In this document: piece by piece, positions 1-63,562 of the stretch | Layout: every line of letters begins with the position of its first letter | How positions within the stretch are numbered: position 1 is the stretch's first letter | Assembly (NCBI RefSeq): GCF_035084215.1 | Contig: NW_027138892.1 | Location: 372,001 to 436,000, forward strand | From: Heptranchias perlo | Taxonomy: Eukaryota | Reading direction: 5' to 3' | Length of the DNA stretch: 64,000 nucleotides | The notes under the pieces: generated by a model | What the model was told of the DNA's origin: nothing | The model's input: the letters and a program-made list of their open reading frames with translations, nothing else | Database searches by the model: none | Program-made: the position numbers and the translations under genes

Positions 1-2900
1 AAGCCGACATCGCGGAGGAACGGATTCCCGAGCAGCGGCTCCTGCAGGACGGCCGCTACCCCCGACGGGCGAGAGCTCCGGCTGGAGGCGACCATGGTCC
101 AGACCCTGAGCAGATCCTGGTACAAGACAGGCAGCTCCTGCAAAGACGTGCGGCCGCCCACCAGCGAGACGAACAGGAGCTGCGTGTCGTAGTTCAGGCC
201 GTGCAGCTGGCGGAAAAAATACGTCGCCAGCGCACGCCATCTAAGAGGACGCTCCGCGTACAGGTATCGCTGCAGCATCCGAAGGCGGAAAGTTGCCACC
301 TGGGTGCGGACGCACACCAGCCCCTGACCGCCCTCCCTAAGCGGGAGACTCAGGACCGCGGCAGCGACCCAGTGCATCCCTTTGGCCCAGAAGAAGTCGA
401 CGAACTTCCTCTGAATCTTGGCGACAAAATCAGGGGGGGGGGTCAAAGGAACCAACCGGTACCACAACATGGCGGCCACCAGCTGGTTTATGACCAGCAC
501 TCGACCCCTGTAGGATAACACTCGGAGCAGTCCTGTCCAGCGCGCCAGGCGAGCGGTGACTTTGGCCTCCAGCTCTACCCAGTTCGCCGGCCAGGCTTCC
601 TCGGCAGGGCCGAGGTAGACTCCCAGGTACCGGAGGTGCGTGGTGCTCCAGGCGAAAGCCCTGAGCTCCTCCGGCATGGAGTCCACCCGCCACTGACCCA
701 CCAGGAGTCCGGAACATTTCTCCCAGTTGATTCTTGCGGAGGACGCGGCAGAGTAGACCTCTTGGCACTCGCGCATTCTCCGCAAGTCAAGGGGATCGGT
801 GACCATGAGGAGCACGTCGTCGGCGTAAGCCGAAAGGACGACCTCCACGCCCGGCTCGAGCAGAGCCAGTCCCGACAGCCTCTTTCGCAAGAGGTGCAGG
901 AAAGGCTCTACGCAGATGGTATATAATTGGCCGGACATGGGGCACCCCTGACGCACTCCTCTCCCGAAGCGAAGGGGCGCCGTCAAGGATCCGTTAACCT
1001 TAATCAGACACTCCGCGGCGGCGTACAGAAGTCGGATCCGGGCGACGAAATGCGACCCGAATCCGAAAGCGCGCAGAGTCCCGAATAGATACTCGTGATC
1101 CACCCTGTCGAACGCCTTCTCCTGATCCAAGGAAAGGAAGGCGACCGACAGACCAGCCCTCTGGGAATGGTGGATCAGGTCCCGGACCAGGTGGATGTTA
1201 TCGTGGATCGTCCGGCCCGGGACCGTGTAGGACTGGTCGGGGTGGATCATGTGGTCCAGCACGGTGCCGAGGCGAGCAGACATCGCCCTGGCGAAGACCT
1301 TATAATCCGTGCTGAGGAGGGAGACCGGGCGCCAGTTTTTAAGGTTGCGGAGATCCCCCTTCTTAGGCAGCAGGACCACGACCGCCCTGCGCCACGAAAG
1401 GGGCATCTCCCCGGTCGCCAGACATTCCCCCAGGACCCGCGCGTAGTCGCCCCCCAGGACGTCCCAGAAGGCCCTGAGGAACTCCACGGTCAGCCCGTCC
1501 AGCCCCGGGGATTTGCCCCTAGAGAGCTGGTGGAGGGCGCCGGTCAGCTCCGCCAAACTGAGCGGAGCGTCCAGACGCTCGGCGTCCTCCGGGCCGACCT
1601 TCGGCAAGTCCTCCCACAAAACTCTGCGCGCCTCCTCGCTGGACGGATCCGGAGAGAACAGAGCCTCGTAGTAAGATCGAGCACGGGCCCTGACTCCCTC
1701 CGGGTCCGAGACGAGGGACCCGTCGTCGGCCAGCAGCGTAAGGAGCTGCTTACGAGCCCCCCGCCGCTTTTCCAGCGAGTAGAAGAAGGGAGAGCCGCGG
1801 TCCAGGTCCCGCAGGAGCTGGAGCCGCGACCTCACGTACGCTCCTCGGGACCCGACCAGTTGCAGGTCCCTCAGAGCGTCCTTCTTCTCTTCGTACACCT
1901 GCCGCAGGGCCGGATCCTCGGCGGCCTGACCGAGACGGGACTCCAGGCCAAGCACCTCCTGCTCCAACCGCCTGACCTCGGACTCCCGCCTCTTAGTCGA
2001 CCCCCTCGCGTACTCTTGACAGAAGAGGCGGACGTGAGCCTTGCCCACGTCCCACCATAGCCTCAAGGAGGAGAAGCCTCCCCGCTTCCCTCTCCAGTCG
2101 CTCCAGAACAGACGGAACGAGTCCCGGAACCGCGCGTCCTCCAGCAGCCGGTTGTTAAAGTGCCAGTACGCGGACCCCGACCGGGCGCGGAGCAGAGCGA
2201 GCTCCATCCACACCAGGTGGTGGTCCGAGCACGACACCGGCTGGATGGAGGCAGACGGGACGCAGGAGGCGTACGCCCGCGAAACGTACAGGCGGTCGAT
2301 TCTGGTGCTCCCCCCTCCGGCCCTCACAAAGGTGAACTGGCCGGAGTCGGGATGGAGATTCCGCCAGACGTCCACCAAGTCGAAGGACCCGACCAGGTCC
2401 CTCAACTTCTCCGTCGCCGTTCGGGCACGCGCGGGACCGGAGCGGTCCCTCGCCTCGAGGGTACGGTTAAAATCCCCCCCGAGGATAATGCACTCGCCGG
2501 CGTCGACGGAGTTTAGGTAAGTGGACACTTCTTCAAAGAAGCTCACTTGCTCGCCCTCGGACCAGGGGGCGTACACGTTCACCAGGTGAAGCGGCACGTC
2601 CCCGTGGCGAAGGGCTACGTGGAGCAAGCGGCCCGGCACCGGCTCCTTGACCCCCAAGATCTCCGGCTGAAAAGTCGGGGCCAACAAGATGGCCACCCCG
2701 CTCGAAACGCTGGCGAGGTGACTCAAGTAGACCCCCCCTCCCCATTCCAGGATCCACGTGGCCTCGTCTCCCGGAACGGTGTGGGTTTCCTGCAGAAAGC
2801 ACACCGCATACTTCCCGTCCCGAAGGACCGAGAACTTGTCAAATCTACGGCGGGCGTCTCTGCCGCCGTTGATGTTGAGGCTGGCTATGGTTATCTCCAT
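1..2900 (-). CDS. Tx1 ORF2p (APE endonuclease + reverse transcriptase), running off the window edge
   Basis: ATG at 2900: MEITIASLNING...FLQETH...VNVYAP...ILGGDFN; RT motif SAYADD at about 830-813. Frame checked at 2900, 827 and 5 and is the same. The ORF track lists no stop-terminated ORF from this ATG, consistent with an open frame. Confidence 0.9.
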   Translation of the reverse strand, partial: MEITIASLNINGGRDARRRFDKFSVLRDGKYAVCFLQETHTVPGDEATWILEWGGGVYLSHLASVSSGVAILLAPTFQPEILGVKEPVPGRLLHVALRHGDVPLHLVNVYAPWSEGEQVSFFEEVSTYLNSVDAGECIILGGDFNRTLEARDRSGPARARTATEKLRDLVGSFDLVDVWRNLHPDSGQFTFVRAGGGSTRIDRLYVSRAYASCVPSASIQPVSCSDHHLVWMELALLRARSGSAYWHFNNRLLEDARFRDSFRLFWSDWRGKRGGFSSLRLWWDVGKAHVRLFCQEYARGSTKRRESEVRRLEQEVLGLESRLGQAAEDPALRQVYEEKKDALRDLQLVGSRGAYVRSRLQLLRDLDRGSPFFYSLEKRRGARKQLLTLLADDGSLVSDPEGVRARARSYYEALFSPDPSSEEARRVLWEDLPKVGPEDAERLDAPLSLAELTGALHQLSRGKSPGLDGLTVEFLRAFWDVLGGDYARVLGECLATGEMPLSWRRAVVVLLPKKGDLRNLKNWRPVSLLSTDYKVFARAMSARLGTVLDHMIHPDQSYTVPGRTIHDNIHLVRDLIHHSQRAGLSVAFLSLDQEKAFDRVDHEYLFGTLRAFGFGSHFVARIRLLYAAAECLIKVNGSLTAPLRFGRGVRQGCPMSGQLYTICVEPFLHLLRKRLSGLALLEPGVEVVLSAYADDVLLMVTDPLDLRRMRECQEVYSAASSARINWEKCSGLLVGQWRVDSMPEELRAFAWSTTHLRYLGVYLGPAEEAWPANWVELEAKVTARLARWTGLLRVLSYRGRVLVINQLVAAMLWYRLVPLTPPPDFVAKIQRKFVDFFWAKGMHWVAAAVLSLPLREGGQGLVCVRTQVATFRLRMLQRYLYAERPLRWRALATYFFRQLHGLNYDTQLLFVSLVGGRTSLQELPVLYQDLLRVWTMVASSRSSRPSGVAAVLQEPLLGNPFLRDVG

Positions 2901-2929
2901 GGCAAGAGCACAGCGCAACCTACTTAAAC

Positions 2930-4972
2930 CTAATGCGCGGAGGGAGCGGGGCCGCTAGTCGACCGCCACTCGCTCAAGAGCCCGGTGAGGAGGGATCTGA
3001 GCCGACGCAGCCCGACCCCGCCGTCGTCCCCTTCCGCGGCCACGGACGCGACGGCGGCCAGGACCGAGCGGATTAACTGCGCCGGCTCCGACCAACGGTC
3101 GAGGGCCAGCCGGACGCCATCGCGACGATGGCTCCAAACGGACACAAAATCCCGGAGTTCCTCAACGGGGATGAGGGGAGACTCGGTGTCGGGCACGAGG
3201 GCGTCCACCACCTCACTGGTGGCGAACTCCAAATCCTCCCCAGTGCCCACCACCGAGTCCCCGACCTCCTCCGGATCATCGTCGCCCGCGGCCGACCCAC
3301 TCCCCGCACAGGGTGCGGAGAACGAGACGGCCGCGCCGGCCAGCCCCGCCTCTGTCACGATCCCACCCCCCGGATCGTCGGCAGAGGAGTCCCCCCCGGG
3401 CTCTACCGGGGGCTCCGGGTCAGAGGGCGGCGCCGGGCGGGGACCCTCCCCATTCTCCGGGCGGTGAAAAACAGGCACCCGGATATAGGGGCAAACCGGG
3501 GAAACCGGGGAGAACGTGTACTCCAGTTCTCCCACCTCCCCCGGCTCCGTGCCCAGATACTGGGAGGAGGGGGTCCCCCCACCCACGTCGCCACCGACCG
3601 ACCCGGCCGGTGAGATGTTTTTATTAAACCCCGCCACCAGGTCGAGCAGGTCCTGGGAGAGGTCGAGCCGGGGGCAGACGAATCCGGCCTCTTCGGCCTC
3701 GCCCACCCCGGCACCCAGGACGCCCGACCCGGTGAACAGGGTAGTGTCGGGTAAATGCGGATCCGCGACCCCCCCTATCGGCGGGGTCTCTCCATCCCCC
3801 CCGGGAGGCACGGGCACGATCTCCTCCCCCCGAGAGGTGGATGACCCCCGCCGCTGTTCGGATGTCACGGGCGGGGCCGCAGGATCCGCGACCGGCACCG
3901 ACTCCCCTTCCACGGGGGGCCGTCCCTTAGCAGGGAGCCCGTTCGCTTCCGGGGAGTGGTGCCTCTTTTTCTTCCAGGAGGGTCGCGGAGGGAGGGGGGA
4001 CTCCATGTCTGCTGGGACCCCCGCCTCCGCTCCCTCCTGATCACCCGCCAGCCCGGGCTCTGTCGCGACCGCGAGATGTTGACTGGCCGCGGTCACGGCC
4101 TCGGGCTGACTGAGATCTTCTCTGTCCCGGGGACCAGCCTCTAGATTCTTCCTCTTTCTCCGCGCCTTTCTCTGGCGAGGGTTCCCCTCCTCCCCCCTGG
4201 CGGAGGCCTCGACGCCAACCTCCACCCGCGCAGTTGACTCTCCCGACGCGGGGGCGGGGTTGGGGGGAGGAGCGGTGGCGGCGCCAGCCCCGGCCGCCGT
4301 AGCTGTTTTGGCGGCCTGAGAGGCAGGGCAGTTCCTCTTCAGGTGCCCCACCTCCTTACAGGCATGGCACCGCCCACCCTCTGCCGTCCAAAAGACGCGG
4401 TAAGGGGTCCCCTCGTGGAGGGCGTTAAAGCCCCCCTCCGTAACCTCCTCCCGTGCCAGCTTGACGAATGCCTGGCGACGGAAGGAGTAAACATGCCGGA
4501 GGCTGTTCTCCCTGAGTCCGAGCGGCAGCGGCGTTACCCCCGACCTCACCTCCCCCAGTTGACGTAGGTGGGGGAGGAGGAGCTCGTCCGACAGGAAAGG
4601 CGGGACGTTAGATAAAATGACCCGCTGCGCGGTGGCCTCCAGCGGGTCCACCGGCAGGAAGGTCCCGCCCACCGTGAGCCCCTTACTAAGGGCCAGGGAC
4701 ACCGCCCGCTCGGACCTCAGGAAGAACACCGCCCTCCCGTACATTTTTGAGGCCGCGACGATGGCCGAGGGGCCGACAACCTCGGCCATGGCCTTTACGC
4801 AGGCCTCAATGGTCATGTTGGGGTGGGCGTAGCTCTTCACCCCATGCTTCCTCGTAATGAGGCGGAAAGGCGCCGGCCCAGCAGGAGCGGCACGAACTGT
4901 AGGAGCGGCCCCCGAGGTAACCGCCGCATACGTCCTGCTGGGTCCCGGCACCGGCGAAGATGGTGAAGCCAT
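2930..4972 (-). CDS. Tx1 ORF1p (nucleic-acid-binding, zinc knuckle), 680 aa
   Basis: Tx1-type N-terminal motifs (ASKMYGRAVFFL, RVILSNVPPF, HVYSFRRQ), CHACKEVGHLKRNC (CX2CX4HX4C), then a low-complexity acidic/Pro-rich region. Confidence 0.92.
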   Translation of the reverse strand: MASPSSPVPGPSRTYAAVTSGAAPTVRAAPAGPAPFRLITRKHGVKSYAHPNMTIEACVKAMAEVVGPSAIVAASKMYGRAVFFLRSERAVSLALSKGLTVGGTFLPVDPLEATAQRVILSNVPPFLSDELLLPHLRQLGEVRSGVTPLPLGLRENSLRHVYSFRRQAFVKLAREEVTEGGFNALHEGTPYRVFWTAEGGRCHACKEVGHLKRNCPASQAAKTATAAGAGAATAPPPNPAPASGESTARVEVGVEASARGEEGNPRQRKARRKRKNLEAGPRDREDLSQPEAVTAASQHLAVATEPGLAGDQEGAEAGVPADMESPLPPRPSWKKKRHHSPEANGLPAKGRPPVEGESVPVADPAAPPVTSEQRRGSSTSRGEEIVPVPPGGDGETPPIGGVADPHLPDTTLFTGSGVLGAGVGEAEEAGFVCPRLDLSQDLLDLVAGFNKNISPAGSVGGDVGGGTPSSQYLGTEPGEVGELEYTFSPVSPVCPYIRVPVFHRPENGEGPRPAPPSDPEPPVEPGGDSSADDPGGGIVTEAGLAGAAVSFSAPCAGSGSAAGDDDPEEVGDSVVGTGEDLEFATSEVVDALVPDTESPLIPVEELRDFVSVWSHRRDGVRLALDRWSEPAQLIRSVLAAVASVAAEGDDGGVGLRRLRSLLTGLLSEWRSTSGPAPSAH

Positions 4973-5669
4973 GACCTAAAGAGCCACACCCACCCCAAGT
5001 CTCAGGCCTTTGGATGGAAATTGGCCTTTTTTTAAAAGAATTCTTGAGGATACCTCTCTCCCCGAATCCCAGTGCTTGGTTGGGAGAGGGCCCCTTTGTT
5101 GTTTTTATATATTCCCAGAATACCCCGGAGAGCAAGGGAATATCCCAGAGAGCAGGAGAAGGTGGGAGGGATGGATGGCAGAATGGGAAGGAGGGAGTCT
5201 GCAGGGGTAGGCTGCTGCAGAAGTGGGTGGAAGAGGGGCGGGGTTGCACCTTAAAAGGTGGATCCTCTTCTGCCTGTCTTCCGGTGGGCAGGGGGAGGAG
5301 ATGTCTTCCCCTAGACAGCTGGAGCTGCCTAGGCTCAGTCCTCCAAAGATTTGAAAAAGAAAGTAACTTCACCCAGGCAGCTCCAGCTGTCCCGGGCCAG
5401 ACACTTGGGGGGGACCCCTGTCCTCTGAAGTCTTCTTCCTCCCCCTACCTTCAGCCGACACACCTCACTGCACCGACCACCTCTTCCTCCCACTGGTTGG
5501 TGCTCTTTTTCTCCTTCTCCCTCCCTCCTTGTTGATGGTGGTTTCTCCTTCTTTCTCCTTCTCCTTCTCCCCAAGGGACCCAGGCAAGGGCCTGCTCTCT
5601 CTGCTCTCCACTCCACTCAGTGGCAGTCCAGCCACAAACACCTCCAAGGCCTTGCTGGTCTGTATTGCA

Positions 5670-5835
5670 AAGCTCTGATTGGCTCTGGATATCAATCTCT
5701 CCCCCAGAGCCCTGTCCTTTGTTAATTGGTGCCTGGATTCATGGAAGATTCCTGATTGGCTATCAGGGATTGTCAATCATCATTGGTGCTGTCCATTCCT
5801 GGTTTAAATGCAGGCTGTCCCAGCAGTATAAATAC
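5670..5835 (+). promoter_or_regulatory. Ferritin gene A promoter: four inverted CCAAT (ATTGG/Y-box-like) motifs and TATAAATA
   Basis: CTGATTGGCT at about 5675 and 5752, ATTGG at about 5725 and 5782, TATAAATA at 5827. Confidence 0.7.
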
Positions 5836-5915
5836 AAGAGCTTGTGAGGGAAGAGGTTAGGTTGTTTCATGCAGTGGTGTTTGAAGTGAGGTTTCTGTTA
5901 ACAGTAAAAGTTAAG

Positions 5916-8140
<2,225 letters not shown>

Positions 8141-10130
8141 CTGGACTGTTGTCCATGTTGCAGATATTCAACTTGTGTATTGAAGTTTTATGTTGCCATC
8201 TCTCTGAACTGGGAATGGAATTCCAAGTCTAAGATTAACTTCCAAACATTGTAGTTGAGTGTTCTTGCAGCTGAAATAAAACATTTTGATGTTGAGCTGG
8301 TTCCTTTTCTTCAGTAATTCAGCACATTCTAACACCAATGCACGTGGCCTTGCGTCAAACAAAAAAAAATTCTAAGAAATAGGTTGTCACCGTGATAAAA
8401 TCTGATTTGTTTGGGCACATGGATGTTTTAACCCCTTCCCCTCCAGAAGACTTAATTTGGTTTTGTAGCAGCCTAGGATGGCCATCAGGCCAAAATTAGA
8501 TTTGTACCTAACAGCTTTCAATATTTGGTGTTCTGTAGTAGAGATTAAAATGTAATCTGATTCCAGTAAGACCTCTTCCTTCACATAGGCTTGAATCCCT
8601 TTTGGAGAGTGTGCATTTTTTTATTACTATTCGTTCATGGGATGTGGGCATCAATGGTGATTACAGTAGTTAACCTTCTGAATAAACAACCCCACACATT
8701 GCTGCTGACTTGTCCATTGTAGGACATGAGGGAAGTGTTCCCTGAAGCAGGTATTCAAATTTAAGTAGTTACAAAAATCCTGGAGCAAAGTAAGACCAAA
8801 TCTCCAATTGTTCCTGCTAGGGTTAACTGGCTCTTTCCTCCTTCTCTTCAGCCCATCTTTTTCTTCCTGTGCAGAACTTTGGTCCAGCTCCTGCTATTTG
8901 TTTCAATCTCAATTTTTATTTTCCAGTCTCTGTTCACCTCATGCTCCTTTTATATCCTGGACCCCATAGCCTCTAAAATACTTCCATTTGCTGTTGCAAA
9001 TCTAAGAGCCCCTCTAAGTTTCCCTTGCTGGATTCTGTTTCATTAAACAGTTCTTGCCCCATTCCCCTCTCCTTGCGAATACAATCTTTGTGTAATCTTA
9101 TTTGGCCTGGAACCAAATAACACTAGATCCCAATTGCCAAAACTGCCACTTATAAGTCTACTGAAGAGTTGGAGAATAGAGCCATCTAATTAAAGGCTCA
9201 ACCACCAACGACTTGGTCTGTTTAAAGCTTTAACTGAGTTTGCACCAGTGATGTTCAGGTTATTCTCACACAGGGATCATATGATCAGATCAGTCCATCG
9301 ACCCCACTTTTCGTTGCTTCATCTTTCCTTCACTAGGTTCCACCTTTGATTTTTTAGCCTGCTGTTTGTTGTTGATCCGACAGTATTCTGATGTGATCTG
9401 GAACACAAAATATCCACGGGGCCCCATCCTTCCCTGACCGGATTTCGGGAAATATCAGTAACTCCCCTTTCTAATGAGAAAATTCACCACTCGACTCTTT
9501 CCACTTGGTGTTTGACTGTCCAAAAAGTACAAGAGATTAATCATTGAAACAAGGGATTACCAAACCCAGGAAATACCAGATAGTCTGTTCACCACTGTCG
9601 CTCACTGTATATACAACCAACACTACACACAGTGTTTGCCTCTCACCGCAATCCCTCCCAACACCAACCCCCCCCCCCCCCAAATCCCTTCAGTCAATGG
9701 TCCACAGTCTCTTCCCCGTGGAGTGCTCTGCATTTTATTGTTTGTAAAATGTCATGATGACAAAACAAGAACTCAACATGCCGTGGCCCCCTTCACTTTC
9801 CAGCCGATGTGTGTACAGATGCTCACTGACCCTAGAATTGATGGAGTATTGAAGGACTTGTGTTTAACACGTTCATCACACCCACTTTCCATTCGCCTGA
9901 CTCGCTGTTGGTTGCTGTTCACAGGCTCTGATCTGTTTGGATGTTGCCTCAAACCCGCAGCTACTTGCCAAATAACCAACTCACGGATCCATCCAGAATT
10001 ATTCAAAGACACTGACCCGCAAACAACAATTAAACCTGTGGTTCTGGATCTTTGAACCGTCACGATCACTGACCATAACCGATGGGATGGGGGCAGATCC
10101 ACCAATTGACAATTTGGTCCATTATGGTCA

Positions 10131-10400
10131 AGTGCCCGGGTGGCCCCGGAGAGGGAGCATGTGGTGTCCACCGTTACGCTTGATGCCTTCCGCGACCGCT
10201 GGGCACCGCAGGGTATAGACTGTCTTTCAGACATCAATAATAGAATCCTGATTTAATTGGGAAAGTATCCTGTTGTTTTTGGTGGCACTTGATGCTTATT
10301 TTGGTATCTTTTCAGTTTGATTGGACCATCCAATATTAGTGGTGCCCTGAGAGGGTCACTTGTGATGGTTTATGTTTGGTGACCCTGGGGCAACCCAGAG
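10131..10400 (+). mobile_element. Tx1 3' fragment (older subfamily)
   Basis: Encodes a degenerate ORF2 C-terminus (ARVAPEREHVVSTVTLDAFRDRWAPQG...ILI*), homologous to 51995-52119. The 3' boundary is approximate. Confidence 0.75.
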
Positions 10401-10502
10401 TCTCCCTTATTGGTCCATCAAAGAAAGGTCGATTATGGTCAAGAATATGGTCACGATCACATTTTTTTTTCTTTGGAGTGTGGGATGGAAGAGCAGCCAT
10501 GG

Positions 10503-10678
10503 TTTTTTTGCTTTTCCTTTTTTTTGTGTTTTAGGCCCCCCTTTTATTAGAAGGGGAGGGGGGGTTGGTTGTGTTTATGTGCAGTAAATCAATAAACCCA
10601 AAATAAGTGTCAAATTATAATTTTATTACATCGATCCAGGATGCACTCCAGTCCCTGCGGTGCCCACCGGTCACGGAA
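10503..10678 (-). mobile_element. 5'-truncated Tx1 3' end with terminal hairpin and A-rich tail
   Basis: Reverse complement reads FRDRWAPQGLECILD..., followed by the CCCCTTC-(T/A)ATAAAA-GGGGGGCCTAAAA motif and a tail. Confidence 0.85.
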
Positions 10679-10699
10679 ACAGATTTTACAGTTTGAGGA

Positions 10700-10900
10700 A
10701 AGTCAAAGCAATTGGATCTTTATTGAATTGTCAGCCAATGATGCTCCTCCTTCAAAGTTCTGACTGGCTCTGGGTGTCATCTCCCTTCCTCCCTTTTCTT
10801 GATTGGTGTTCTGAGAAAGGATGTAATTTCTGATTGGGTATTGCCAACTGTCACTCATCATCTAGGCTGCCACGCCCAGGATTAACCAGCAGTATAAATA
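10700..10900 (+). promoter_or_regulatory. Ferritin gene B promoter (multiple CCAAT boxes + TATA)
   Basis: ATTGG/CCAAT at about 10711, 10735, 10802, 10833. CCAGCAGTATAAATA at 10887-10900, shared with the gene A core promoter. Confidence 0.7.
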
Positions 10901-10974
10901 TGGAGCTTTGGGTGGCTGTTTTTCAGTTTCGTGCTTCAATAGAGTTGTTTAGTTTTGTTAAAGTTAATTTAAAG

Positions 10975-13542
<2,568 letters not shown>

Positions 13543-14899
13543 ACTGACTGCAGGGATAAAGCTTATTGTTCAGTACTCCTGTTTATAGTCTGAAGAACCC
13601 CTATCCTGTAGCAATGGTGACTTTGTACTAAGAGCTCTGAGACCTGGGCTCTTGATGTGAAATGTAATAGTAACTGGAAATAAACTGTTACAGAAGACTG
13701 GGTTTTGGCTCCTTGTAAATTGAGTGAATGCTTATTTTTCAGATTAACATAATTCAGCTGTTGTAACAAATTACATTGGGCTATGTATTGGCTTTAGGGT
13801 GAGATTCTGCCCTATGACATTTTTTCTTCTGGGGTCATATCAATGTAGTGACTTGGGTGTTGAGGGCCAATGTGTCTGCCTTGAGTGTAAATTGTATTTA
13901 TGCAGTAAAATGATTACTGCTGATTTCAATGCAAAGAACAATACAGTAATGAGTTACTGTTCCTATTAGTACTGCATATTATCAACTGTTTAACTCATTA
14001 ATGATGCAAAATCAGCTGCTGTAACATTTTGTTCCAATAAAACACAAGGAAAGTGAACTAGTAATTTCAGTCCAACAGGCAATTTTTTAAGAATAGTATC
14101 TGCCTGGGGAAGAACAATCCAGATGCTTTTTTTTCCAAAGATGCTACAGACCTCAGTAGGTAGTTGGGGTAGCTTATGAAATCACTCACTATTACTCCTA
14201 ATAAACTGTTTGTTTGGAGTCAAATAGGTCTCATATGGGGGAGTGCAGGTTCCCTGTTTGTCTATTTCCCTTCATTTTCATCTTCTGCCCCCCAACCCCC
14301 TGTTAATCTCCCCCATGAATAATAAATTGGGTATGGTACAGAAAAAATACCTCGAACTAAACTCCAGCAAACAAAATCTTCCTTCTGGGAGACGTAGTAA
14401 ATGCACTAAACAACTAACTTGAACCATTAAGTTGAATAGATAAGGCTCCTAAACTCTTCCATACCACTACTGTTCCATCAATTCATAAACCCAATATAAG
14501 CAGCTCATCCATAAATCTATCAATTTGTATTTATCCCATTGTGCAGTTAATACTAGATTACAATTCTAAATTCTACTGGATCACCATTTCATTTAAACCA
14601 AGTTAAATAGATATTTTGCCTGAAACTCCACATCCCAATGCCATCAATTCATAAACACAATACAATCAGCTCCTCCATAAATGTGTCGATTTGCCTGTCG
14701 TTCTATTGTGTGTTCCATACCAAATTGTAATCAACCTTTCCAAATCCTATGGGTTCTCCATTCATCTCCTTCACCCCTATGAATGGATTCAAATGTTGAT
14801 GCTGTAGCTGTAATTATCCAGTGTTTCCAAGTGAAGTTTAGGAACTTGTGACTTGCACTGGGTGTGATAGAATTGCCGTCTTCAGTCAGTCCATGTTAA

Positions 14900-15210
14900 T
14901 ATCTTTATATTGATGGAGTAAATAAGGGGAAACTGATTCCAGTAGCAGACCGGTTAGTAACCAGCAAACACAGATTTAAGGTGATTGGTAAAAGAACCAG
15001 AAGTGACACGAAACTTTTTTCAGTGTTCTGATCTGGAATGCATTGCCTCATCGGGTGGTGGAAGCAGATTTAATAACTTTCAAAAGGAAATTGGATAAAT
15101 ACTTGAAGGGGGAAAGAGCAGGGGATTGGGACTAATTGGATAGCTCTTTCAAAGAGGCAGCATAGGCACAATGGGCTGAATGGCTTCTTTCTGTGCTGTA
15201 ATAGTAGGAT
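14900..15210 (+). mobile_element. CR1-type LINE 3' fragment
   Basis: Typical CR1 3' end (...ttggataaatacttgaag...gggctgaatggc...tctgtgctgt); mirrored at about 53190-53490. Confidence 0.7.
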
Positions 15211-15334
15211 ATTATGATCTCTAAAGGCACTTTTGGGATATCAATGTCACCACATTTCATACGTTGTTGAGCCATAATTTTACGAGTCAGTGTGGATTAT
15301 CTGGTAGCTTTGACTGCTGCATAGTTCGCACCTT

Positions 15335-15705
15335 TGAGGTGTAGTCACTGTTGTAAGGTAAGAAATGCGGCAGTCAATTTGCCTCCAGCAAGGACCCAAA
15401 AACAGCAATGAAATATTGACCTGATAATCTGTTTTAGTGATGTTAGTTGAGGGATCAATATTGGTCCAGATATTGGGGAGAACTCCGCTGCTCTTCCTCG
15501 AAATAGTGCTGTGGGATATTTTACGTCCACCTGAGAGAGCAGATGAGGCCTCGATTTAATATCACATCCAAAAGACGGCACCTCCGACAGTACAGCACTC
15601 CCTTAGTCAGCCTAGATTATGTGCTCAAGTCTCTAGATGATGACTTGAACCCACAACCTTCTGACTCTGAGGTGAGAGTGCTGCCACTGAGCCACAGCTG
15701 ACACA
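15335..15705 (-). mobile_element. tRNA-headed DeuSINE-like SINE (SacSINE1-like)
   Basis: A/B boxes (tggctcagtgg...ggttcaagtc) and a Deu-domain-like core ctgtcggaggtgccgtcttttggatg. Mirror copy at 52688-53060. Confidence 0.7.
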
Positions 15706-16132
15706 AATGGAGATGTTTGTGTGGGTGACATTGCATTCAGTAATCTTCACTGCCTCTCATTCTCGCTGAATATCCTGAATTTTACCAAACAACATTTCAT
15801 GAGAATCAAAACTAAAAATGATGCATCCCACAATGCTTTGCCCAGTTGATGCCCCCATGCTGCCAATCCTCAGACACACCCATTCTCTATATTAGAACTG
15901 GGGACGATTCACACCATCCATGGGATGGAATTTCCATTTCTCTGACCAATGGTGGTTTGCAAATTCACTCAAGACAACTTGATTGCTTTGAATATTGTCT
16001 CAACATCACAATCACTAACAAGTAATAAACTTGACCAGATTATGAAAAGCCACTTCAGTGAAAATATCAAATTATTATCAAATAATTCAAAGTTATGATT
16101 CCAAGAGATTGAAACAAAGAGAAACTTTCAGA

Positions 16133-17953
16133 TTTTTTTTTTCTTTTTTTTTTCACTTTCAGATCTTTTTTTCTCCGTTTTTCTTTTTTTTTATTTTGTT
16201 AGGCCCCCCTTTTATAAGAAGGGGGGGTGTGGGGTGTGCTTAAATACTAAAACCAAACAAACCAAAACCAAGTGTTCAAATTAAAATTTTATTATCCTCG
16301 TCCAGGATACACTCCAGCCCCTGCGGTGCCCACCGGCCGCGGAAAGCCTCGAGCGTACCGGCAGACACCGCGTGCTCCATCTCCAGGGCCACCCGGGCGC
16401 GGAGCATTCCGCGGAAGAGAGGCAGACAGGCCGAGCAACCGCCCCCACGGACCACGATCATCCTAGACCTGTGGATGGCCACCTTGGACAGGCCCAGGAG
16501 CAGGCCCACGAGAACGTCCACCGACCTGCCCGCCCCCCTCATCACCGGGCGGCCAAAGATCAGGAGCGTGGGACTGAAATGCAGCCAGAACTTGAGGAGC
16601 AGCCCCTTCAAATAATGGAACAGGGGCTGCAGTCTCGCAAACCCAGTGTACAGATGGAACAAGGACTACTCCAGGCCGCAGAAATCACAAGCGGCCTGGG
16701 TGTCCGTGAAATGGCGTAACCGCCGGTTGCACGCGACTGCTCCGTGCGCCACCCTCCACCCCAGATCCCCGATGGAACACGGGAGGATCCCTGAGTAGAG
16801 AGCCCCCCACTGGGAACCCCCGTCTCCGCCGGACGGCAGGATGGTACGACAGGGCGTGTCCGGCCGAGAGACGAGGGCGAGGAAGTGGAGGGTGTGCAGG
16901 AGCAGCCCGTACAGGAAATCCCTCCGCGCGGTGTGAAACGGCACGGAGGGAATTTCCGAGAGACGGCTCAAGTTGTGAGGCGCGGCCCCCCGAGGGAGGT
17001 TCCGGGGTTTGGCGCCGAGGAGGAACTCCGTCCGAACGGGGGTCAGGTCGGACGGGATGGCTCCGCACGCCTGAGCCGCCTCCACATCCCGAGTGGAGTC
17101 AGGGCCGAGCGCCGATTTCAACGCCCGGATGGCGATGGCCGCGTCCCCGGCACGCCACGAGGACATCTGTGCGGCGAGCGCCCACGGCTCCAACCAACCC
17201 GACCCACCGCCATCCAGGACGTCCCTGACTCTGGTCACCCGACCGGCCACGGCCCTCCGCACCGACAGCCGCGAGTGGCCGAAGCCGATATCGCGGAGGA
17301 ACGGATTCCCGAGCAGCGGCTCCTGCAGGACGGCCGCTACCCCTGACGGGCGAGAGCTCCGACCGGAGGCGACCATGTTCCAGACCCTGAGCAGATCCTG
17401 GTAAAAGACAGGCAGCTCCTGCAAAGACATGCGGCCGCCCACCAGCGAGACGAACAGGAGCTGCGTGTCGTAGTTCAGGCCGTGCAGCTGGCGGAAAAAA
17501 TACGTCGCCAGCGCACGCCATCTAAGAGGACGCTCAACGTACAGGTATCGCCGCAGCGTCCGAAGGCGGAAAGTTGCCACCTGGGTGCAGACGCAGACCA
17601 GCCCCTGACCGCCCTCCCGAAGCGGGAGACTCAGGACCGCGGCAGCGACCCAGTGTATCCCTCTGGCCCAGAAGAAGTCGACGAACTTCCTCTGAATCTT
17701 GGCGACAAACTCAGGGGGGGGGGTCAAAGTGACCAACCGGTACCACAACATGGCGGCCACCAGCTGGTTTATGACCAGCACTCGACCCCTGTAGGATAAC
17801 ACTCGGAGCAGTCCTGTCCAGCGCGCCAGGCGAGCGGCGACCTTGGCCTCCAGCTCTTCCCAGTTCGCCGGCCAGGTACCGGAGGTGCGTGGTACTCCAG
17901 GCGAAAGGCCTGAGCTCCTCCGGCAGGGAGTCCACCCGCCACTGACCCACCAG
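16133..17953 (-). mobile_element. 5'-truncated, inactivated Tx1 copy (ORF2 C-terminal half, 3'UTR, tail)
   Basis: Near-identical to 1-705 in the overlap. Has a 32-bp deletion between CCAGG microhomologies at about 17875 (frameshift), an in-frame TAG at 16666-16668, and the C-terminal CDFC...H...C motif. Confidence 0.92.
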
Positions 17954-17984
17954 AAAACTAGACGAAACTGGAGTGCATCCTGGA

Positions 17985-18363
17985 TATCCACAGGTCCATG
18001 ATGCTCGCGGTCCGTGGGGGCGGGCACTCGGCCTGTCTGCCTCTCTTTCGCGGGTTGCTCCGCGCCCGGGTGGCCCTGGAGATGGAGCACGCGGTGTTTG
18101 CCGGTACGCTTGAGGCTTTCCGCGACCGCTGGGCACCGCAGGGGCTGGAGTGCATCCTGGACGAGGAAAATAAAATTTTAATTTGATGCCTGGTTTCGTT
18201 TTATTTGGTTTTTAGTACTTAAGCACACCCAACACCACCCCCCCTTCTTGTAAAAGGGGGGCCTAAAAAACAGGAAAAAAAAAAGGAAAAAAAAGGGTGC
18301 TGGTTGGTGGGTAAAGTGATAAAAGAAAAAGAAATAAAGGAAAAAAAAAAGAGAAAAAAAAAA
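17985..18363 (+). mobile_element. Short Tx1 3' end with compound A-rich tail, fused head-to-head to the preceding copy and abutting the ZP3 5' region
   Basis: ORF2 C-terminus ...WAPQGLECILDEENKILI*, terminal hairpin at about 18238-18262, tail. Confidence 0.9.
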
Positions 18364-18407
18364 GGTGCTGGTTGGTGGGTAAAGTGATAGTTGAGTTATT
18401 TGGTATC

Positions 18408-24019: not shown

Positions 24020-24520
24020 ACCGATTGGGTTTATGACCGGTCACCACCTCCTGTGATTTCCCCAATTGGCTGCCCCTCTTCTCAGAGATTCTCTCGCTCC
24101 ACAGACCACCTGCACTCTGTCGGTTCCACCAATCCGGGAAGCTTCACCTGTGATTGGATGAACTCGGTGACCCGGGCCCGTCATGGCTGCCCAATCTCCC
24201 ACAATGCAGAGCGGCAGAGAAAAGGCCCCATCTGTGAGACAGGCCGCGCTGCACTCTGGGAGAATATTCGCACATGCGCACATCACCCGCCGGATCAGCG
24301 ACCGCTTCCTGTTGTGTCGCGAGACAAACTTTCCGTTTTTTCGGTTGAGAACGAGCGGTTTTTATTGTGACGGAAACTGACGTCACTTTTCCTTTGAATC
24401 GCGCGGTTTGATTTAAATAAACGGCGCACATGCGCAGTGTGGCGCGTCCCTCTTAAAGGGCCCTGGACCGGCCGAGAGTCCCCGAGCCCGGGGACAGGAC
24501 CGAGAGACGGGCAATGGGAT
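24020..24520. promoter_or_regulatory. CpG-rich promoter-like island without an identified downstream gene
   Basis: CCAAT x4, NRF1-like GCACATGCGCA at about 24269 and 24426, perfect CRE TGACGTCA at 24378, ETS-like CTTCCTG, CHR-like TTTGAA. Confidence 0.5.
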
Positions 24521-24554
24521 TAGAGCGGAGGGCGGCAGCACAAGTTGGTGAAAC

Positions 24555-26374: not shown

Positions 26375-26488
26375 TTGGCTCTGTGGGACTGGATAGACCC
26401 AGACCGACTGGAAGTGTATGGGGATATGCTTCTGGCAGACAGCATGGCAGAGTCCACGAGGAAAGGCATCATCACCCTCATCTCCAAG
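26375..26488 (+). mobile_element. Small L1/Tx1-type ORF2 fragment from a different lineage
   Basis: LWDWIDPDRLEVYGDMLLADSMAESTRKGIITLISK resembles the pre-RT region (W...PDLLEV...R.GIITLI.K). Confidence 0.55.
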
Positions 26489-26516
26489 TGAAGCTTTCTT
26501 ACATCGCGTCTCAGGC

Positions 26517-28117: not shown

Positions 28118-28189
28118 TGTGGAGACTCGGATTCGCACGAAGGTCACTGCGACCACAACGCAGAGTATTAACCACAAAACGATCACGAC
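28118..28189 (-). pseudogene. tRNA-His(GTG) pseudogene
   Basis: Degenerate copy of the intact gene at 42857-42928 with broken acceptor and T stems. Confidence 0.8.
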
Positions 28190-53060: not shown

Positions 53061-54853
53061 GGTGCGAACTATGCAGCAGTCAAAGCTACCAGATAATCCA
53101 CACTGACTCGTAAAATTATGGCTCAACAACGTATGAAATGTGGTGACATTGATATCCCAAAAGTGCCTTTAGAGATCATAATATCCTACTATTACAGCAC
53201 AGAAAGAAGCCATTCAGCCCATTGTGCCTATGCTGCCTCTTTGAAAGAGCTATCCAATTAGTCCCACTCCCCTGCTCTTTCCCCCTTCAAGTATTTATCC
53301 AATTTCCTTTTGAAAGTTATTAAATCTGCTTCCACCACCCGATGAGGCAATGCATTCCAGATCAGAACACTGAAAAAAGTTTCGTGTCACTTCTGGTTCT
53401 TTTACCAATCACCTTAAATCTGTGTTTGCTGGTTACTAACCGGTCTGCTACTGGAATCAGTTTCCCCTTATTTACTCCATCAATATAAAGATATTAACAT
53501 GGACTGACTGAAGACGGCAATTCTATCACACCCAGTGCAAGTCACAAGTTCCTAAACTTCACTTGGAAACACTGGATAATTACAGCTACAGCATCAACAT
53601 TTGAATCCATTCATAGGGGTGAAGGAGATGAATGGAGAACCCATAGGATTTGGAAAGGTTGATTACAATTTGGTATGAAACGCACAATAGGACTATAGGC
53701 AAATCGACACATTTATGGAGGAGCTGATTGTATTGTGTTTATGAATTGATGGCATTGGGATGTGGAGTTTCAGGCAAAATATCTATTTAACTTGGTTTAA
53801 ATGAAATGGTGATCCAGTAGAATTTAGAATTGTAATCTAGTATTAACTGCACAATGGGATAAATACAAATTGATAGATTTATGGATGAGCTGCTTATATT
53901 GGGTTTATGAATTGATGGAACAGTAGTGGTATGGAAGAGTTTAGGAGCCTTATCTATTCAACTTAATGGTTCAAGTTAGTTGTTTAGTGCATTTACTACG
54001 TCTCCCAGAAGGAAGATTTTGTTTGCTGGAGTTTAGTTCGAGGTATTTTTTCTGTACCATACCCAATTTATTATTCATGGGGGAGATTAACAGGGGGTTG
54101 GGGGGGGGGAGAAGATGAAAATGAAGGGAAATAGACAAACAGGGAACCTGCACTCCCCCATATGAGACCTATTTGACTCCAAACAAACAGTTTATTAGGA
54201 GTAATAGTGAGTGATTTCATAAGCTACCCCAACTACCTACTGAGGTCTGTAGCATCTTTGAAAAAAAAGCATCTGGATTGTTCTTCCCCAGGCAGATACT
54301 ATTCTTAAAAAAATTGCCTATTGGACTGAAATTACTAGTTCACTTTCCTTGTGTTTTATTGGAACAAAATGTTACAGCAGCTGATTTTGCATCATTAATG
54401 AGTTAAACAGTTGATAATATGCAGTACTAATAGGAACAGTAACTCATTACTGTATTGTTCTTTGCATTGAAATCAGCAGTAATCATTTTACTGCATAAAT
54501 ACAATTTACACTCAAGGCAGACACATTGGCCCTCAACACCCAAGTCACTACATTGATATGACCCCAGAAGAAAAAATGTCATAGGGCAGAATCTCACCCT
54601 AAAGCCAATACATAGCCCAATGTAATTTGTTACAACAGCTGAATTATGTTAATCTGAAAAATAAGCAATCACTCAATTTACAAGGAGCCAAAACCCAGTC
54701 TTCTGTAACAGTTTATTTCCAGTTACTATTACATTTCACATCAAGAGCCCAGGTCTCAGAGCTCTTAGTACAAAGTCACCATTGCTACAGGATAGGGGTT
54801 CTTCAGACTATAAACAGGAGTACTGAACAATAAGCTTTATCCCTGCAGTCAGT

Positions 54854-57416
<2,563 letters not shown>

Positions 57417-57711
57417 CTTTAAATTAACTTTAACAAAACTAAACAACTCTATTGAAGCAAGAAACTGAAAAACAGCCACCCAAAGCTCCATATTTATACT
57501 GCTGGTTAATCCTGGGCGTGGCAGCCTAGATGATGAGTGACAGTTGGCAATACCCAATCAGAAATTACATCCTCTCTCAGAACACCAATCAAGAAAAGGG
57601 AGGAGGGGAGATGACACCCAGAGCCAGTCAGAACTTTGAAGGAGGAGCATCATTGGCTGACAATTCAATAAAGATCCAATTGCTTTGACTTTCCTCAAAC
57701 TGTAAAATCTG

Positions 57712-57888
57712 TTTCCGTGACCGGTGGGCACCGCAGGGACTGGAGTGCATCCTGGATCGATGTAATAAAATTATAATTTGACACTTATTTTGGGTTTATT
57801 GATTTACTGCACATAAACACAACCAACCCCCCCTCCCCTTCTTATAAAAGGGGGGCCTAAAACACAAAAAAAGGAAAAGCAAAAAAAC
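57712..57888 (+). mobile_element. Tx1 3' end (mirror of 10503-10678)
   Basis: FRDRWAPQGLECILD..., hairpin CCCCTTCTTATAAAAGGGGGG, tail. Confidence 0.85.
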
Positions 57889-60255
57889 CATGGCTGCTCT
57901 TCCATCCCACACTCCAAAGAAAAAAAAATCTGATCGTGACCATATTCTTGACCATAATCGACCTTTCTTTGATGGACCAATAAGGGAGACTCTGGGTTGC
58001 CCCAGGGTCACCAAACATAAACCATCACAAGTGGCCCTCTCAGGGCACCACTAATATTGGATGGTCCAATCAAACTGAAAAGATACCAAAATAAGCATCA
58101 AGTGCCACCAAAAACAACAGGATACTTTCCCAATTAAATCCGGATTCTATTATTGATGTCTGAAAGACAGTCTATACCCTGCGGTGCCCAGCGGTCGCGG
58201 AAGGCATCAAGCGTAACGGTGGACACCACATGCTCCCTCTCCGGGGCCACCCGGGCACTTGACCATAATGGACCAAATTGTCAATTGGTGGATCTGCCCC
58301 CATCCCATCGGTTATGGTCACTGATCGTGACGGTTCAAAGATCCAGAACCACAGGTTTAATTGTTGTTTGCGGGTCAGTGTCTTTGAATAATTCTGGATG
58401 GATCCGTGAGTTGGTTATTTGGCAAGCAGCTGCGGGTTTGAGGCAACATCCAAACAGATCAGAGCCTGTGAACAGCAATCAACAGCGAGTCAGGCGAATG
58501 GAAAGTGGGTGTGATGAACGTGTTAAACACAAGTCCTTCAATACTCCATCAATTCTAGGGTCAGTGAGCATCTGTACACACATCGGCTGGAAAGTGAAGG
58601 GGGCCACGGCATGTTGAGTTCTTTTTTGGTCATCATGACATTTTACAAACAATAAAATGCAGAGCACTCCACGGGGAAGAGACTGTGGACCATTGACTGA
58701 AGGGATTTGGGGGTGGGGGGGTTTGGTGTTGGGAGGGATTGCGGTGAGAGGCAAACACTGTGTGTAGTGTTGGTTGTATATACAGTGAGCGACAGTGGTG
58801 AACAGACTATCTGGTATTTCCTGGGTTTGGTAATCCCTTGTTTCAATGATTAATCTCTTGTACTTTTTGGACAGTCAAACACCAAGTGGAAAGAGTCGAG
58901 TGGTGAATTTTCTCATTACAAAGGGGAGTTACTGATATTTCCCTAAATCCGGTCAGGGAAGGATGGGGCTCCGTGGATATTTTGTGTTCCAGATCACATC
59001 AGAATACTGTCGGATCAACAACAAACAGCAGGCTAAAAAAAAAAATCAAAGGTGGAACCGAGTGAAGGAAAGATGAAGCAACGAAAAGTGGGGTCGATGG
59101 ACTGATCTGATCATATGAACCCTGTGTGAGAATAACCTGAACATCACTGGTGCAAACTCAGTTAAAGCTTTAAACAGACCAAGTAGTTGGTGGTTTAGCC
59201 TTTAATTAGATGGCTCTATTCTCCAACTCTTCAGTAGACTTATAAGTGGCAGTTTTGGCAATTGGGATCTAGTGTTATTTGGTTCCAGGCCAAATAAGAT
59301 TACACAAAGATTGTATTCGCAAGGAGAGGGGAATGGGGCAAGAACTGTTTAATGAAACAGAATCCAGCAAGGGAAACTTAGAGGGGCTCTTAGATTTGCA
59401 ACAGCAAATGGAAGTATTTTAGAGGCTATGGGGTCCAGGATATAAAAAGGTGCATGAGGTGAACAGAGACTGGAAAATAAAAATTGAGATTGAAACAAAT
59501 AGCAGGAGCTGGACCAAAGTTCTGCACAGGAAGAAAAAGATGGGCTGAAGAGAAGGAGGAAAGAGCCAGGTAATCCTAGCAGGAACAATTGGAGATTTGG
59601 TCTTACTTTGCTCCAGGATTTTTGTAACTACTTAAATTTGAATACCTGCTTCAGGGAACACTTCCCTCATGTCCTACAATGGACAAGTCAGCAGCAATGT
59701 GTGGGGTTGTTTATTCAGAAGGTTAACTACTGTAAATCACCATTGATGCCCACATCCCATGAACAAATAGTAATAAAAAAATGCACACTCTCCAAAAGGG
59801 ATTCAAGCCTATGTGGAGGAAGAGGTCTTACTGTAATCAGATTACACTTTAATCTCTACTACAGAACACCAAATATTGAAAGCTGTTAGGTACAAATCTA
59901 ATTTTGGCCTGATGGCCATCCGAGGCTGCTACAAAACCAAATTAAGCCTTCTGGAGGGGAAGGGGTTAAAACATCCATGTGCCCAAACAAATCAGATTTT
60001 ATCACGGTGACAACCTATTTCTTAGATTTTTTTTTGTTTGACGCAAGGCCACGTGCATTGGTGTTAGAATGTGCTCAATTACTGAAGAAAAGGAACCAGT
60101 TCAACATCAAAATGTTTTATTTCAGCTGCAAGAACACTCAACTACAATGTTTGGAAGTTAATCTTAGACTTTGAATTCCATTCCCAGTTCAGAGAGATGG
60201 CAACATAAAACTTCAATACACAAGTTGAATATCTGCAACATGGACAACAGTCCAG

Positions 60256-63298
<3,043 letters not shown>

Positions 63299-63487
63299 CC
63301 AAACTACTTTTTTTTTTAATAGACCAGCAACTGACTATAAACAATATGAACATAAGGACCTCAAACCTAAGCTGCTATATTTATTCTTTCAGACCCAACC
63401 CATCTTTAACTACAGGATGTGACATCACTGATGATAAATGTTTGGCAGCCAATCAAATAACTGCTTTCTCATCACACGAACGGAAAA

Positions 63488-63562
63488 AAACCCTAACCCC
63501 TCCCCCTGAAAAAAGTGGGGGGGGCCTAAAAACACCAAAAAAAATGAAAAACACACAAAAAC
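63488..63562 (+). mobile_element. Very short Tx1 3' terminus (hairpin + tail) upstream of ferritin gene C
   Basis: CCCCTCCCCCTGAAAAAAGTGGGGGGGGCCTAAAAAC plus an A-rich tail, matching the family terminal motif ...GGGGGGCCTAAAA. Confidence 0.6.

Follow-up and report, generated by a model that had tools for sequence, protein, structure and literature searches.

Promoter-proximal insertions of a Tx1-clade LINE at ferritin and ZP3-like genes of the shark Heptranchias perlo

Target choice by APE-type LINEs is usually credited to the reading of sequence by their endonuclease, and the element described here belongs to the Tx1 clade, as does Mutsu of zebrafish. The endonuclease of Tx1L, another member, is reported to be sequence-specific, and a loop of the endonuclease to influence nicking preference (PMC1950540). 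The preferences described for Tx1-clade families include weak preference and stacked insertions, and a family is counted as having a preference when one kind of sequence makes up over 20% of its flanks across the genome (PMC4494074). In Dictyostelium, TRE5-A inserts upstream of its target genes and in the opposite orientation, and its ORF1p binds TFIIIB (PMC5911963).

The window analysed here is a stretch of 64,000 nt from Heptranchias perlo (GCF_035084215.1, contig NW_027138892.1, positions 372,001-436,000 of the forward strand). The original prediction saw in it a candidate new system; this was overstated, and the element is a Tx1-clade LINE with an unusual target preference. We found no description of a promoter-proximal insertion habit for vertebrate elements of this class.

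The element and its endonuclease

The most complete copy and two of its parts are as follows.

1..5622, minus strand: Tx1 copy A, 5' end retained, head-to-head with ferritin A
2301..2333, minus strand: region of the betaB6-betaB5 hairpin loop of the endonuclease, 8 residues, Gly-rich
5313..5392, minus strand: long hairpin in the Tx1 5' UTR (z -6.4), kept at 51208-51290 (z -5.2)

Copy A has a 5' UTR of about 650 nt, an open ORF1 (4972-2933, 680 aa) with a CCHC knuckle visible in the sequence, and an ORF2 that is open from 2900 as far as the edge of the window (966 aa) and contains APE and RT domains (PF03372 and PF00078 in Pfam); a Pfam match to PF13966 in the 3' copy (E 3e-4) falls under that family's own cut-off. 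The layout of ORF2 (an APE endonuclease, an RT and, at the C-terminus, a zinc finger) is that of the Tx1 clade, and other traits of the clade are present, namely two ORFs, an A-rich tail, 5' truncations and target-site duplications, the last at only 3/8 sites. In a tree of 19 rows, selected out of 76 usable ones and without a non-Tx1 outgroup, the RT branches with Xenopus Tx1L (P0004) with support of 100/99. A single family had been proposed; several subfamilies are present instead, judging by the divergence of 3' ends, 5' UTRs and 3' UTRs. Copy A and the copy at 16133 are 92% alike and the two Tx1 5' UTRs (copy A and 50918) 75%, and the 3' UTR of the copy at 10133 is unlike that of the other copies.

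The 5' UTR hairpin corresponds to no Rfam family at the gathering score, and its weak miRNA-type matches reflect the hairpin shape; the search for an RNA-gene target or a ribozyme within the 5' UTR likewise gave nothing at that score, and the 3' UTR does not fold better than shuffled sequence. ORF1p carries a conserved helical C-terminal domain (10 hits; model pLDDT 73) with no Atlas hit and no Foldseek match at E 0.001, and the best VIA match (Z 7.1, rmsd 3.0 over 73 residues) is generic helical. In fused gene models among the ORF2 homologs, the RT precedes the host domain in 5/8 and follows it in 3/8.

The endonuclease loop is 3 residues shorter than that of Tx1L, and the Tx1L-type loop tip is absent. 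All 79 parsed ORF2 homologs have a loop of 11 residues, versus 8 here, in a set of 120 examined (41 unparsed) that includes many near-identical turtle records. Among 120 endonuclease-domain homologs (68 parsed), the loop has 11 residues in 64, 13 in one and 7-8 in three; these three, records without genomic context, are among the four closest relatives (58-65% identity), and the fourth ends within the loop. Since replacing the L1 loop entirely with glycines lost most activity, and the loop grafts described in the same work did not carry specificity over (PMC1950540), loop length alone is no predictor of behaviour.

Insertions, host promoters and rearranged flanks

The host genes are listed first, then the duplicated block and the remaining Tx1 pieces.

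5623..8141, plus strand: ferritin A, ATG at 5916, four exons that give a 175-aa open frame
10680..13543, plus strand: ferritin B, TATA at 10893, ATG at 10975, open frame of 176 aa
18364..21262, plus strand: ZP3-like gene with nine exons and a 458-aa open frame
50690..50917, plus strand: ZP3 stub, CCAAT at 50786, ATTGG at 50815, E-box at 50823, TATA at 50842, codons 1-9
60255..63489, minus strand: ferritin C, with a promoter and exon 1 of its own ahead of exons 2-4 duplicated from A, 175 aa open
6673..16871: duplicated block, inverted copy at 61728-51524, 98.6%
10133..10426, plus strand: older Tx1 3' end, 17-bp target-site duplication (10116-10132 / 10427-10443)
10503..10679, minus strand: stub B, Tx1 3' end, no target-site duplication seen
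16133..17953, minus strand: 5'-truncated Tx1 copy, short flank duplication within the tail
17954..18363, plus strand: Tx1 3' end, its 5' end joined to the 5' end of the 16133 copy via a 17-nt template-jump piece
50918..52260, plus strand: Tx1 5' UTR of a second subfamily, sense, with a fusion near 51520 to the duplicated 16133 copy
62420..62460, plus strand: decayed remnant of an old-type Tx1 within intron 1 of ferritin C (41 bp matched at 83%, E 3e-6)
63490..63562, plus strand: stub C, Tx1 tail, 5' junction uncertain by about 5 bp

We take the first, second and fifth of these genes to be ferritins, from the original prediction and from characteristic motifs; ferritin exon 1 alone (34 aa) gives no Pfam hit. 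The product of the ZP3-like gene is 93% identical to a Heptranchias perlo ZP3-like protein, and the host reading frames are intact.

Tx1 insertions cluster at these promoters beyond chance within the window, so that the central claim is largely confirmed. Less than 300 host bp separate six of the eight Tx1 events from a ferritin or ZP3 TATA position, as against 0/33 other repeat segments (Fisher P 6e-6, with the inverted 10-kb duplicate left out), these controls being unclassified repeats that were found only via self-comparison and may be older and purged from promoters. The 300-bp cut-off was set after the data had been seen, in a single window picked for its clustered look; across cut-offs of 150-1000 bp the binomial P is 2e-5 to 1e-3. 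If the junction of the 10133 copy is placed as first estimated, the count falls to 5/8. The preference is not exclusive, 2/8 events lying away from promoters: the piece at 62420-62460, overlooked by the original prediction, is not promoter-proximal, and no promoter is seen beside the tail of the 16133 copy, as had been stated.

The individual positions proposed earlier were borne out. The 5' end of copy A lies at about 5622, 205 bp from the ferritin A TATA (5827); stub B precedes the TATA of ferritin B by 214 bp, and stub C is about 105 bp from a TATA-like box of ferritin C (63385); the tail end at 18363 falls just past the position of TATAAAA, as judged from the homologous promoter (50842-50848), its distance being zero by construction, and a Tx1 5' UTR joins ZP3 at codon 9 (50917/50918). 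Between the 10133 copy and the TATA of ferritin B there are 289 host bp. The spacer is indeed free of the element, with no blastn or tblastn match from about 18440 to about 50900; it holds six tRNA genes or tRNA-derived heads (28-48 kb; Rfam, ARAGORN), none near a Tx1 copy. An antisense orientation to the gene is right for A, B and C, but 10133, 18363 and 50918 are sense, so that the six proximal events divide three each way.

The insertions had been called independent on the ground that the ferritin promoters were non-homologous. This ground was wrong: the promoters of A, B and C are homologous, with ATTGG boxes and TATA in common (in ferritin A, four ATTGG boxes at 5678-5786), and those of A and B are 66.5% alike over 185 bp, introns 1 and 3 aligning over only 37 and 27 bp. 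Independence itself holds within the window, because junction positions, lengths and subfamilies differ, the Tx1 junctions sitting at differing positions within homologous ferritin promoters. With 3' ends that are 73-89% alike, the preference has lasted across subfamilies.

Some of the junctions may be rearrangement breakpoints and not insertion sites, since target-site duplications are so few and the flanks are mismatched at three sites (C, 16133/17986 and 50918), all of which look like rearrangements. Site C is bordered by a ferritin promoter and, at its opposite end, by ZP3-upstream-like DNA, stub C continuing (to 63625) into DNA 90% like the ZP3 upstream region 50703-50771; 16133 and 17986 are joined 5' end to 5' end; and the 5' UTR at 50918 abuts the breakpoint of the duplicate within ORF2. 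The breakpoints of the duplicated block are in ferritin exon 2 and inside Tx1 ORF2, and the duplicate of about 10 kb carries three insertions along as copies. At the ZP3-like gene (18364) the native upstream promoter has been replaced by Tx1; the piece at 17954-18363 has a double A-tail and a 26-bp duplication of the sequence following the ZP3 TATA, likely the result of two stacked events. None of 61 ZP3-like models from other sharks and rays matched the Tx1 interval at the N-terminus, in a comparison of translated pieces only.

The "oocyte-type" status of these genes is only indirectly supported, by run X5 (presumed RNA; tissue not recorded), which contains contigs of ZP3 exon 1 and joints between spliced ferritin exons; among the recorded runs, none labelled as RNA contains the stretch. 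One X5 contig joins codon 12 of ZP3 exon 1 to an antisense Tx1 tail, a junction absent from the window. In DNA run X1, whose contig depth is no copy number, depth flanking the A junction is 231 at 5479 and 249 at 5628, and that of the ferritin block is 224-343 versus 58 for one ferritin A intron contig.

What may guide the insertions

No shared target sequence had been seen, and we agree: the junction flanks differ everywhere and hold no common word, in a small sample of eight events. Nor did this small sample reveal one conserved target at a fixed nick position, of the Tx1L, Keno or Mutsu type; and no RNA gene, microsatellite or transposon was found as target, Rfam and ARAGORN yielding only the tRNA-like genes, which lie apart from every copy; a possible exception is the 16133 copy, whose flank is a moderately repeated sequence. 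Since clustering and independence hold and no target word is shared, a positional preference appears to be the best reading of the clustering.

We tentatively favour, as an account with a fair chance of being wrong, a relaxed endonuclease that acts in oocytes and nicks open promoter DNA, leading to repeated Tx1 insertion at promoters. Several Tx1-clade subfamilies would have inserted independently beside the ferritin and ZP3 promoters, the short-loop endonuclease likely nicking open, factor-bound promoter DNA and not one fixed sequence. The element would be transcribed in oocytes, possibly aided by an adjoining promoter (four CCAAT boxes lie 55-159 nt upstream of copy A, which is directed away from them, and the 50918 copy sits sense behind a ZP3 TATA), at a time when nucleosome-poor DNA at the CCAAT and TATA boxes of amplified genes would be the most accessible substrate. 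The A-tail could prime on T-rich nicks, such as those in a TATA box; insertions would persist thanks to gene redundancy, and adjacent copies may later seed deletions and inversions, giving rise to the mismatched flanks.

Tethering, in which the protein particle of the element (for example the C-terminal domain of ORF1p) would bind an NF-Y or TBP-family complex and insert nearby, seems to us doubtful, if worth serious attention. Six junction positions lie 19-55 nt past CCAAT/ATTGG, the distance being 26, 31 and about 36 nt for three of the 5' junctions; the control repeats are absent from the same promoters; the helical domain of ORF1p is conserved; and there is precedent in the insertion of TRE5-A via TFIIIB (PMC5911963) and in the report of promoters bound by NFYA in growing mouse oocytes (PMC13060261). 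However, 28% of host positions already lie within 60 bp of CCAAT/ATTGG, no box lies closer than 98 nt to the 50918 junction, and offset and orientation vary (0-289 bp from TATA; 3 sense, 3 antisense), unlike the narrow distance and single orientation of the TRE5-A type. A constant offset of about 27 nt past CCAAT was considered and dropped, as it fits only three or four junctions, and those approximately. In its boldest form, which we regard as equally doubtful, a shark Tx1 lineage would have dropped sequence reading, become tethered by a Pol II factor (NF-Y or an oocyte TBP complex), and would borrow promoters for oocyte expression and rearrange the ferritin and ZP3 arrays.

The duplicate with its three copied insertions, the mismatched flanks, the similar X1 depth across the A junction and the ferritin block, and the fact that both copies bearing a 5' end touch a promoter would also be expected if insertion were broad, promoter-adjacent copies became sources, and the units spread via segmental duplication, transduction and ectopic recombination. 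We consider this improbable, as it leaves unexplained the different subfamilies, the different offsets and the short 3' stubs, which make up 4/6 proximal events (10133, B, 18363, C) and are not retainable as source elements; two of them (10133 and 18363) have target-site duplications in promoter DNA. Moreover, the ZP3 stub retains DNA upstream of TATA that would be missing from an RNA transcribed from this promoter.

Less probable still is a sequence specificity of the usual Tx1 kind, directed at some short or degenerate word that happens to recur in these related promoters. Target preference is frequent in Tx1-clade families (PMC4494074), the promoters are homologous, and both the 16133 flank and the 5' flank of B show CAGA with a T run behind it; but the remaining flanks have no word in common, the junctions, though in homologous promoters, do not occupy homologous positions, and the endonuclease lacks a loop tip of the Tx1L type. 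Chance, like the spread of a single ancestral insertion by gene duplication, is disfavoured and barely credible in spite of the small sample, the post hoc window and the duplicated block, given the P value against the controls and the fact that junctions, 3' ends, orientations and subfamilies differ at two unrelated gene families, which a single duplicated insertion does not explain.

Comparison with known systems

Among the closest described elements is Tx1L of Xenopus laevis (ORF2 YTX2_XENLA, P0004), which shares with the shark element 54% identity over 966 aa in the window, the RT branch and the APE-RT-zinc finger layout. Tx1L has an 11-residue loop with an RDGH tip, and its endonuclease is reported to be specific for a site in the Tx1D DNA transposon (PMC1950540), whereas the shark element has an 8-residue loop and is found at dissimilar promoter positions. 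Mutsu likewise consists of LINE subfamilies within an amplified, oocyte-expressed gene array, the 5S rDNA (PMC5340908), but the target sequences it uses are fixed and belong to an RNA gene of Pol III, unlike the varied positions at Pol II protein-gene promoters seen here. Crocodilian Tx1-Mar, Tx1-8_Crp, Tx1-4_AMi and Tx1-9_AMi, and Keno, Kibi and Koshi, also show Tx1-clade target preference, their reported targets being DNA transposons, LTR elements, U2 genes and microsatellites (PMC4494074) rather than promoters of host protein genes; the LTR-preferring families could share a promoter mechanism with the shark element.

TRE5-A is similar in being an APE-type non-LTR element placed relative to a promoter complex, TRE5 insertions having a single orientation and a distance of 44-54 bp upstream of tRNA genes (PMC5911963). 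The shark element, in contrast, is spread over about 300 bp, in both orientations, at Pol II genes, and leaves six tRNA-like genes unhit. A vertebrate LINE lineage at Pol II promoters without the loop tip makes a switch from sequence-based to position-based targeting testable, and would tie a LINE to the turnover of amplified egg-gene arrays in sharks.

Tx1 insertions and host promoters

This analysis draws on the window, one mapping of sequencing reads and protein searches. The element is a member of the Tx1 clade: ORF2 of its copy A shares 54% identity with the Xenopus Tx1 ORF2, and the two fall together in a reverse transcriptase (RT) tree of 19 chosen rows (support 100/99).

1-5622, minus strand: copy A, with 5' UTR, open ORF1, and an ORF2 (APE and RT domains) that stays open as far as the window edge

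Two 5' UTRs, otherwise 75% alike, carry a long, nearly invariant hairpin (5313-5392, minus strand, z -6.4; 51208-51290, plus strand, z -5.2) whose arms each contain the word CAGCTG and for which no Rfam family was found. A stingray VWA7-like gene model (P0100) starts with an RT 71% identical to that of the element, which places a relative of the element, also a Tx1 copy, in the 5' part of that gene or upstream of it.

The window contains four ferritin genes (so named after the original prediction and known motifs), together with a complete ZP3-like gene and a ZP3 stub; all four ferritins and ZP3 (458 aa) have open frames with normal splice sites. The DNA is that of a shark: the top matches of ZP3 exon 1 in the protein search are exclusively shark and ray ZP3-like proteins, among them, at 90%, a cluster from Heptranchias perlo with 38 members; one row labelled Salmonella looks like contamination. 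A 10.2-kb block (6673-16871) is repeated in inverted orientation at 61728-51524 with 98.6% identity. In X5, a sequencing run presumed to be RNA, some contigs carry splice joints over ferritin introns (6016 to 12348, 11075 to 12348) and others cover ZP3 exon 1, their loose end being a match to exon 2; in run X6, exon 1-2 joints are absent among the matches listed. Since contig depth cannot rank genes, X5 shows just that ferritin and ZP3 are both spliced in one library, and the label "oocyte" comes by inference from ZP3 biology.

With mirror copies left out, we count eight insertion events (A, an older one at 10133, B, 16133, 18363, 50918, 62420 and C), the decayed piece at 62420 having been overlooked in the original prediction, whose coordinates and promoter distances otherwise hold on re-measurement. 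The stacked 18363 tail was scored once, and the fused 16133 copy was not scored against the ZP3 TATA. Six of the eight events lie less than 300 host bp from a TATA position (A 204, 10133 289, B 213, 18363 0, 50918 75, C 104), versus none of 33 other repeat segments, unclassified and found by self-comparison of the window (Fisher 6e-6); below 1000 bp the figures are 7/8 and 2/33. With a rougher 10133 junction, five of eight events remain at 300 bp, and binomial P is 1e-3, 3e-5, 2e-5 and 2e-5 for 150, 300, 500 and 1000 bp, the cutoffs being post hoc and the window picked for the clustering pattern. The clustering of Tx1 at promoters in this window is a real local pattern.

The stretch at about 18440-50900, as predicted, yielded no piece of the element in a similarity search. 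The repeat-rich spacer within it (28293-48433) holds six tRNA loci, either genes or tRNA-derived heads (Leu, Asp, Glu, Phe, His, Glu), none with a Tx1 copy nearby in the window. A 54-bp minisatellite forms two arrays of opposite orientation (34700-35621 and 50298-50679), the second adjoining the upstream end of the ZP3 stub. The unannotated stretch 26240-26488 matches a Heptranchias ZP3-like model (P0158) in its C-terminal part, with 94% identity over 83 aa, which suggests that the spacer belongs to a conserved repeat unit.

Independence of the insertions

The insertions had been considered independent in part on the ground that the three ferritin promoters are non-homologous. This argument is wrong, the promoters being homologous (A versus B 66.5% over 185 bp, with unalignable introns); independence nevertheless stands on other grounds. 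The junctions occupy differing promoter positions, the copies differ in length, their 3' ends are 73-89% alike and two 5' UTRs 75% alike, and 10133 has another 3' UTR than the other copies. Target sequence is duplicated at 10133 (17 bp), in the 16133 tail and in the 18363 tail, where the repeated 26 bp are those that follow the ZP3 TATA. One X5 contig, of depth 62, runs from codon 12 in ZP3 exon 1 into an antisense Tx1 tail, a further junction absent from the window; being a single contig, it could be a chimera.

How promoters may be reached

The reading we tentatively favour is position-based insertion by access to open promoter DNA. The element would be active in the oocyte, where a loosely reading endonuclease would use as substrate the open DNA that surrounds CCAAT and TATA boxes in amplified genes; insertions would later be tolerated and recombine. 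The betaB6-betaB5 hairpin of the endonuclease is three residues shorter than in Xenopus laevis Tx1 (Tx1L), with a tip of glycines. Of 120 ORF2 homologs examined, many of them near-identical turtle records, 79 were parsed, and each of these has a loop of 11 residues. Among endonuclease-domain homologs (68 of 120 parsed) it has 11 residues in 64, 13 (as parsed) in one and 7-8 in three; the four closest (58-65% identity) comprise these three and one that ends inside the loop. The short loop is thus a lineage marker and not a defect of copy A. According to PMC1950540, this loop alters nicking preference in L1, the Tx1L endonuclease nicks almost exclusively its own site, specificity was not carried over by loop grafts, and most activity was lost when the loop was deleted entirely. 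In view of these results, relaxed specificity of the endonuclease of our element is an inference.

Tethering in the manner of TRE5-A, a Dictyostelium element, is a less probable route. The conserved, helical C-terminal domain of ORF1p (2933-3262, minus strand; 10 matches among 1.84 billion representatives) would suit it, but the domain has no Pfam match and no clear PDB match, and the fold search was uninformative.

Promoter capture and recombination alone seem to us rather improbable. Flanks are mismatched at three sites: the C stub lies between a ferritin promoter, on the 5' side, and DNA at its tail that is 90% like the region upstream of ZP3; the 16133 and 17986 copies are fused 5' end to 5' end via a template-jump piece, the ZP3 promoter being gone; and the 5' UTR of 50918 runs into the breakpoint of the duplicated block inside ORF2. 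Some junctions may therefore be rearrangement breakpoints, which takes weight from the promoter count and supports a role of recombination. Short stubs with duplications in promoter DNA, however, would be left unaccounted for.

Other traits of the locus may be mentioned here. Ferritin C (60255-63385, minus strand) is chimeric: a promoter, exon 1 and intron 1 of its own are joined at exon 2 to the ferritin A duplicate, which suggests recombination between paralogs. The intact ZP3 gene has lost its own promoter (18247-18364), and in the Tx1 3' UTR upstream of it the loop of a C/G hairpin contains a TATA-like word (18249). The flank of the 16133 tail (15750-16132), moderately repeated in DNA contigs, ends in CAGA and a T-run, as does the B junction, and may once have lain upstream of a ferritin copy that has since been deleted.

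Sequence specificity we consider unlikely. The window shows no shared target word, with flanks that vary from each junction to the next; of the six proximal copies, three are sense. A constant offset of about 27 nt past CCAAT/ATTGG is only a loose fit: four 5' junctions lie 26, 31, about 36 and 55 nt past the nearest upstream box, two nick sites placed by means of the homologous ZP3 promoter 29 and 19 nt, and 50918 98 nt, with 28% of host positions less than 60 bp from such a box. When membership was tested, the element fell outside both the sequence-specific Tx1 type and the TRE5 type. Chance is very improbable, and the weights given to the separate readings make a real promoter preference of some kind quite likely.

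Comparison with known elements

Known Tx1 targets comprise a DNA transposon, U2 and 5S genes, microsatellites, Mariner, Harbinger and LTR elements (PMC4494074, PMC4640811, PMC5340908). Among the open-access papers that our searches listed, we found none that describes a preference for protein-gene promoters in Tx1 or in any other LINE of vertebrates; flank figures in the supplements of PMC4494074 may bear on the matter. Tx1L nicks almost solely its own site and has an 11-residue loop, whereas our element has a shorter loop with a glycine tip and dissimilar flanks. Positional targeting by a non-LTR element is described for TRE5-A (PMC5911963); that element, however, is found at tRNA genes, whereas ours lies at ferritin and ZP3 promoters and falls outside the TRE5 type.
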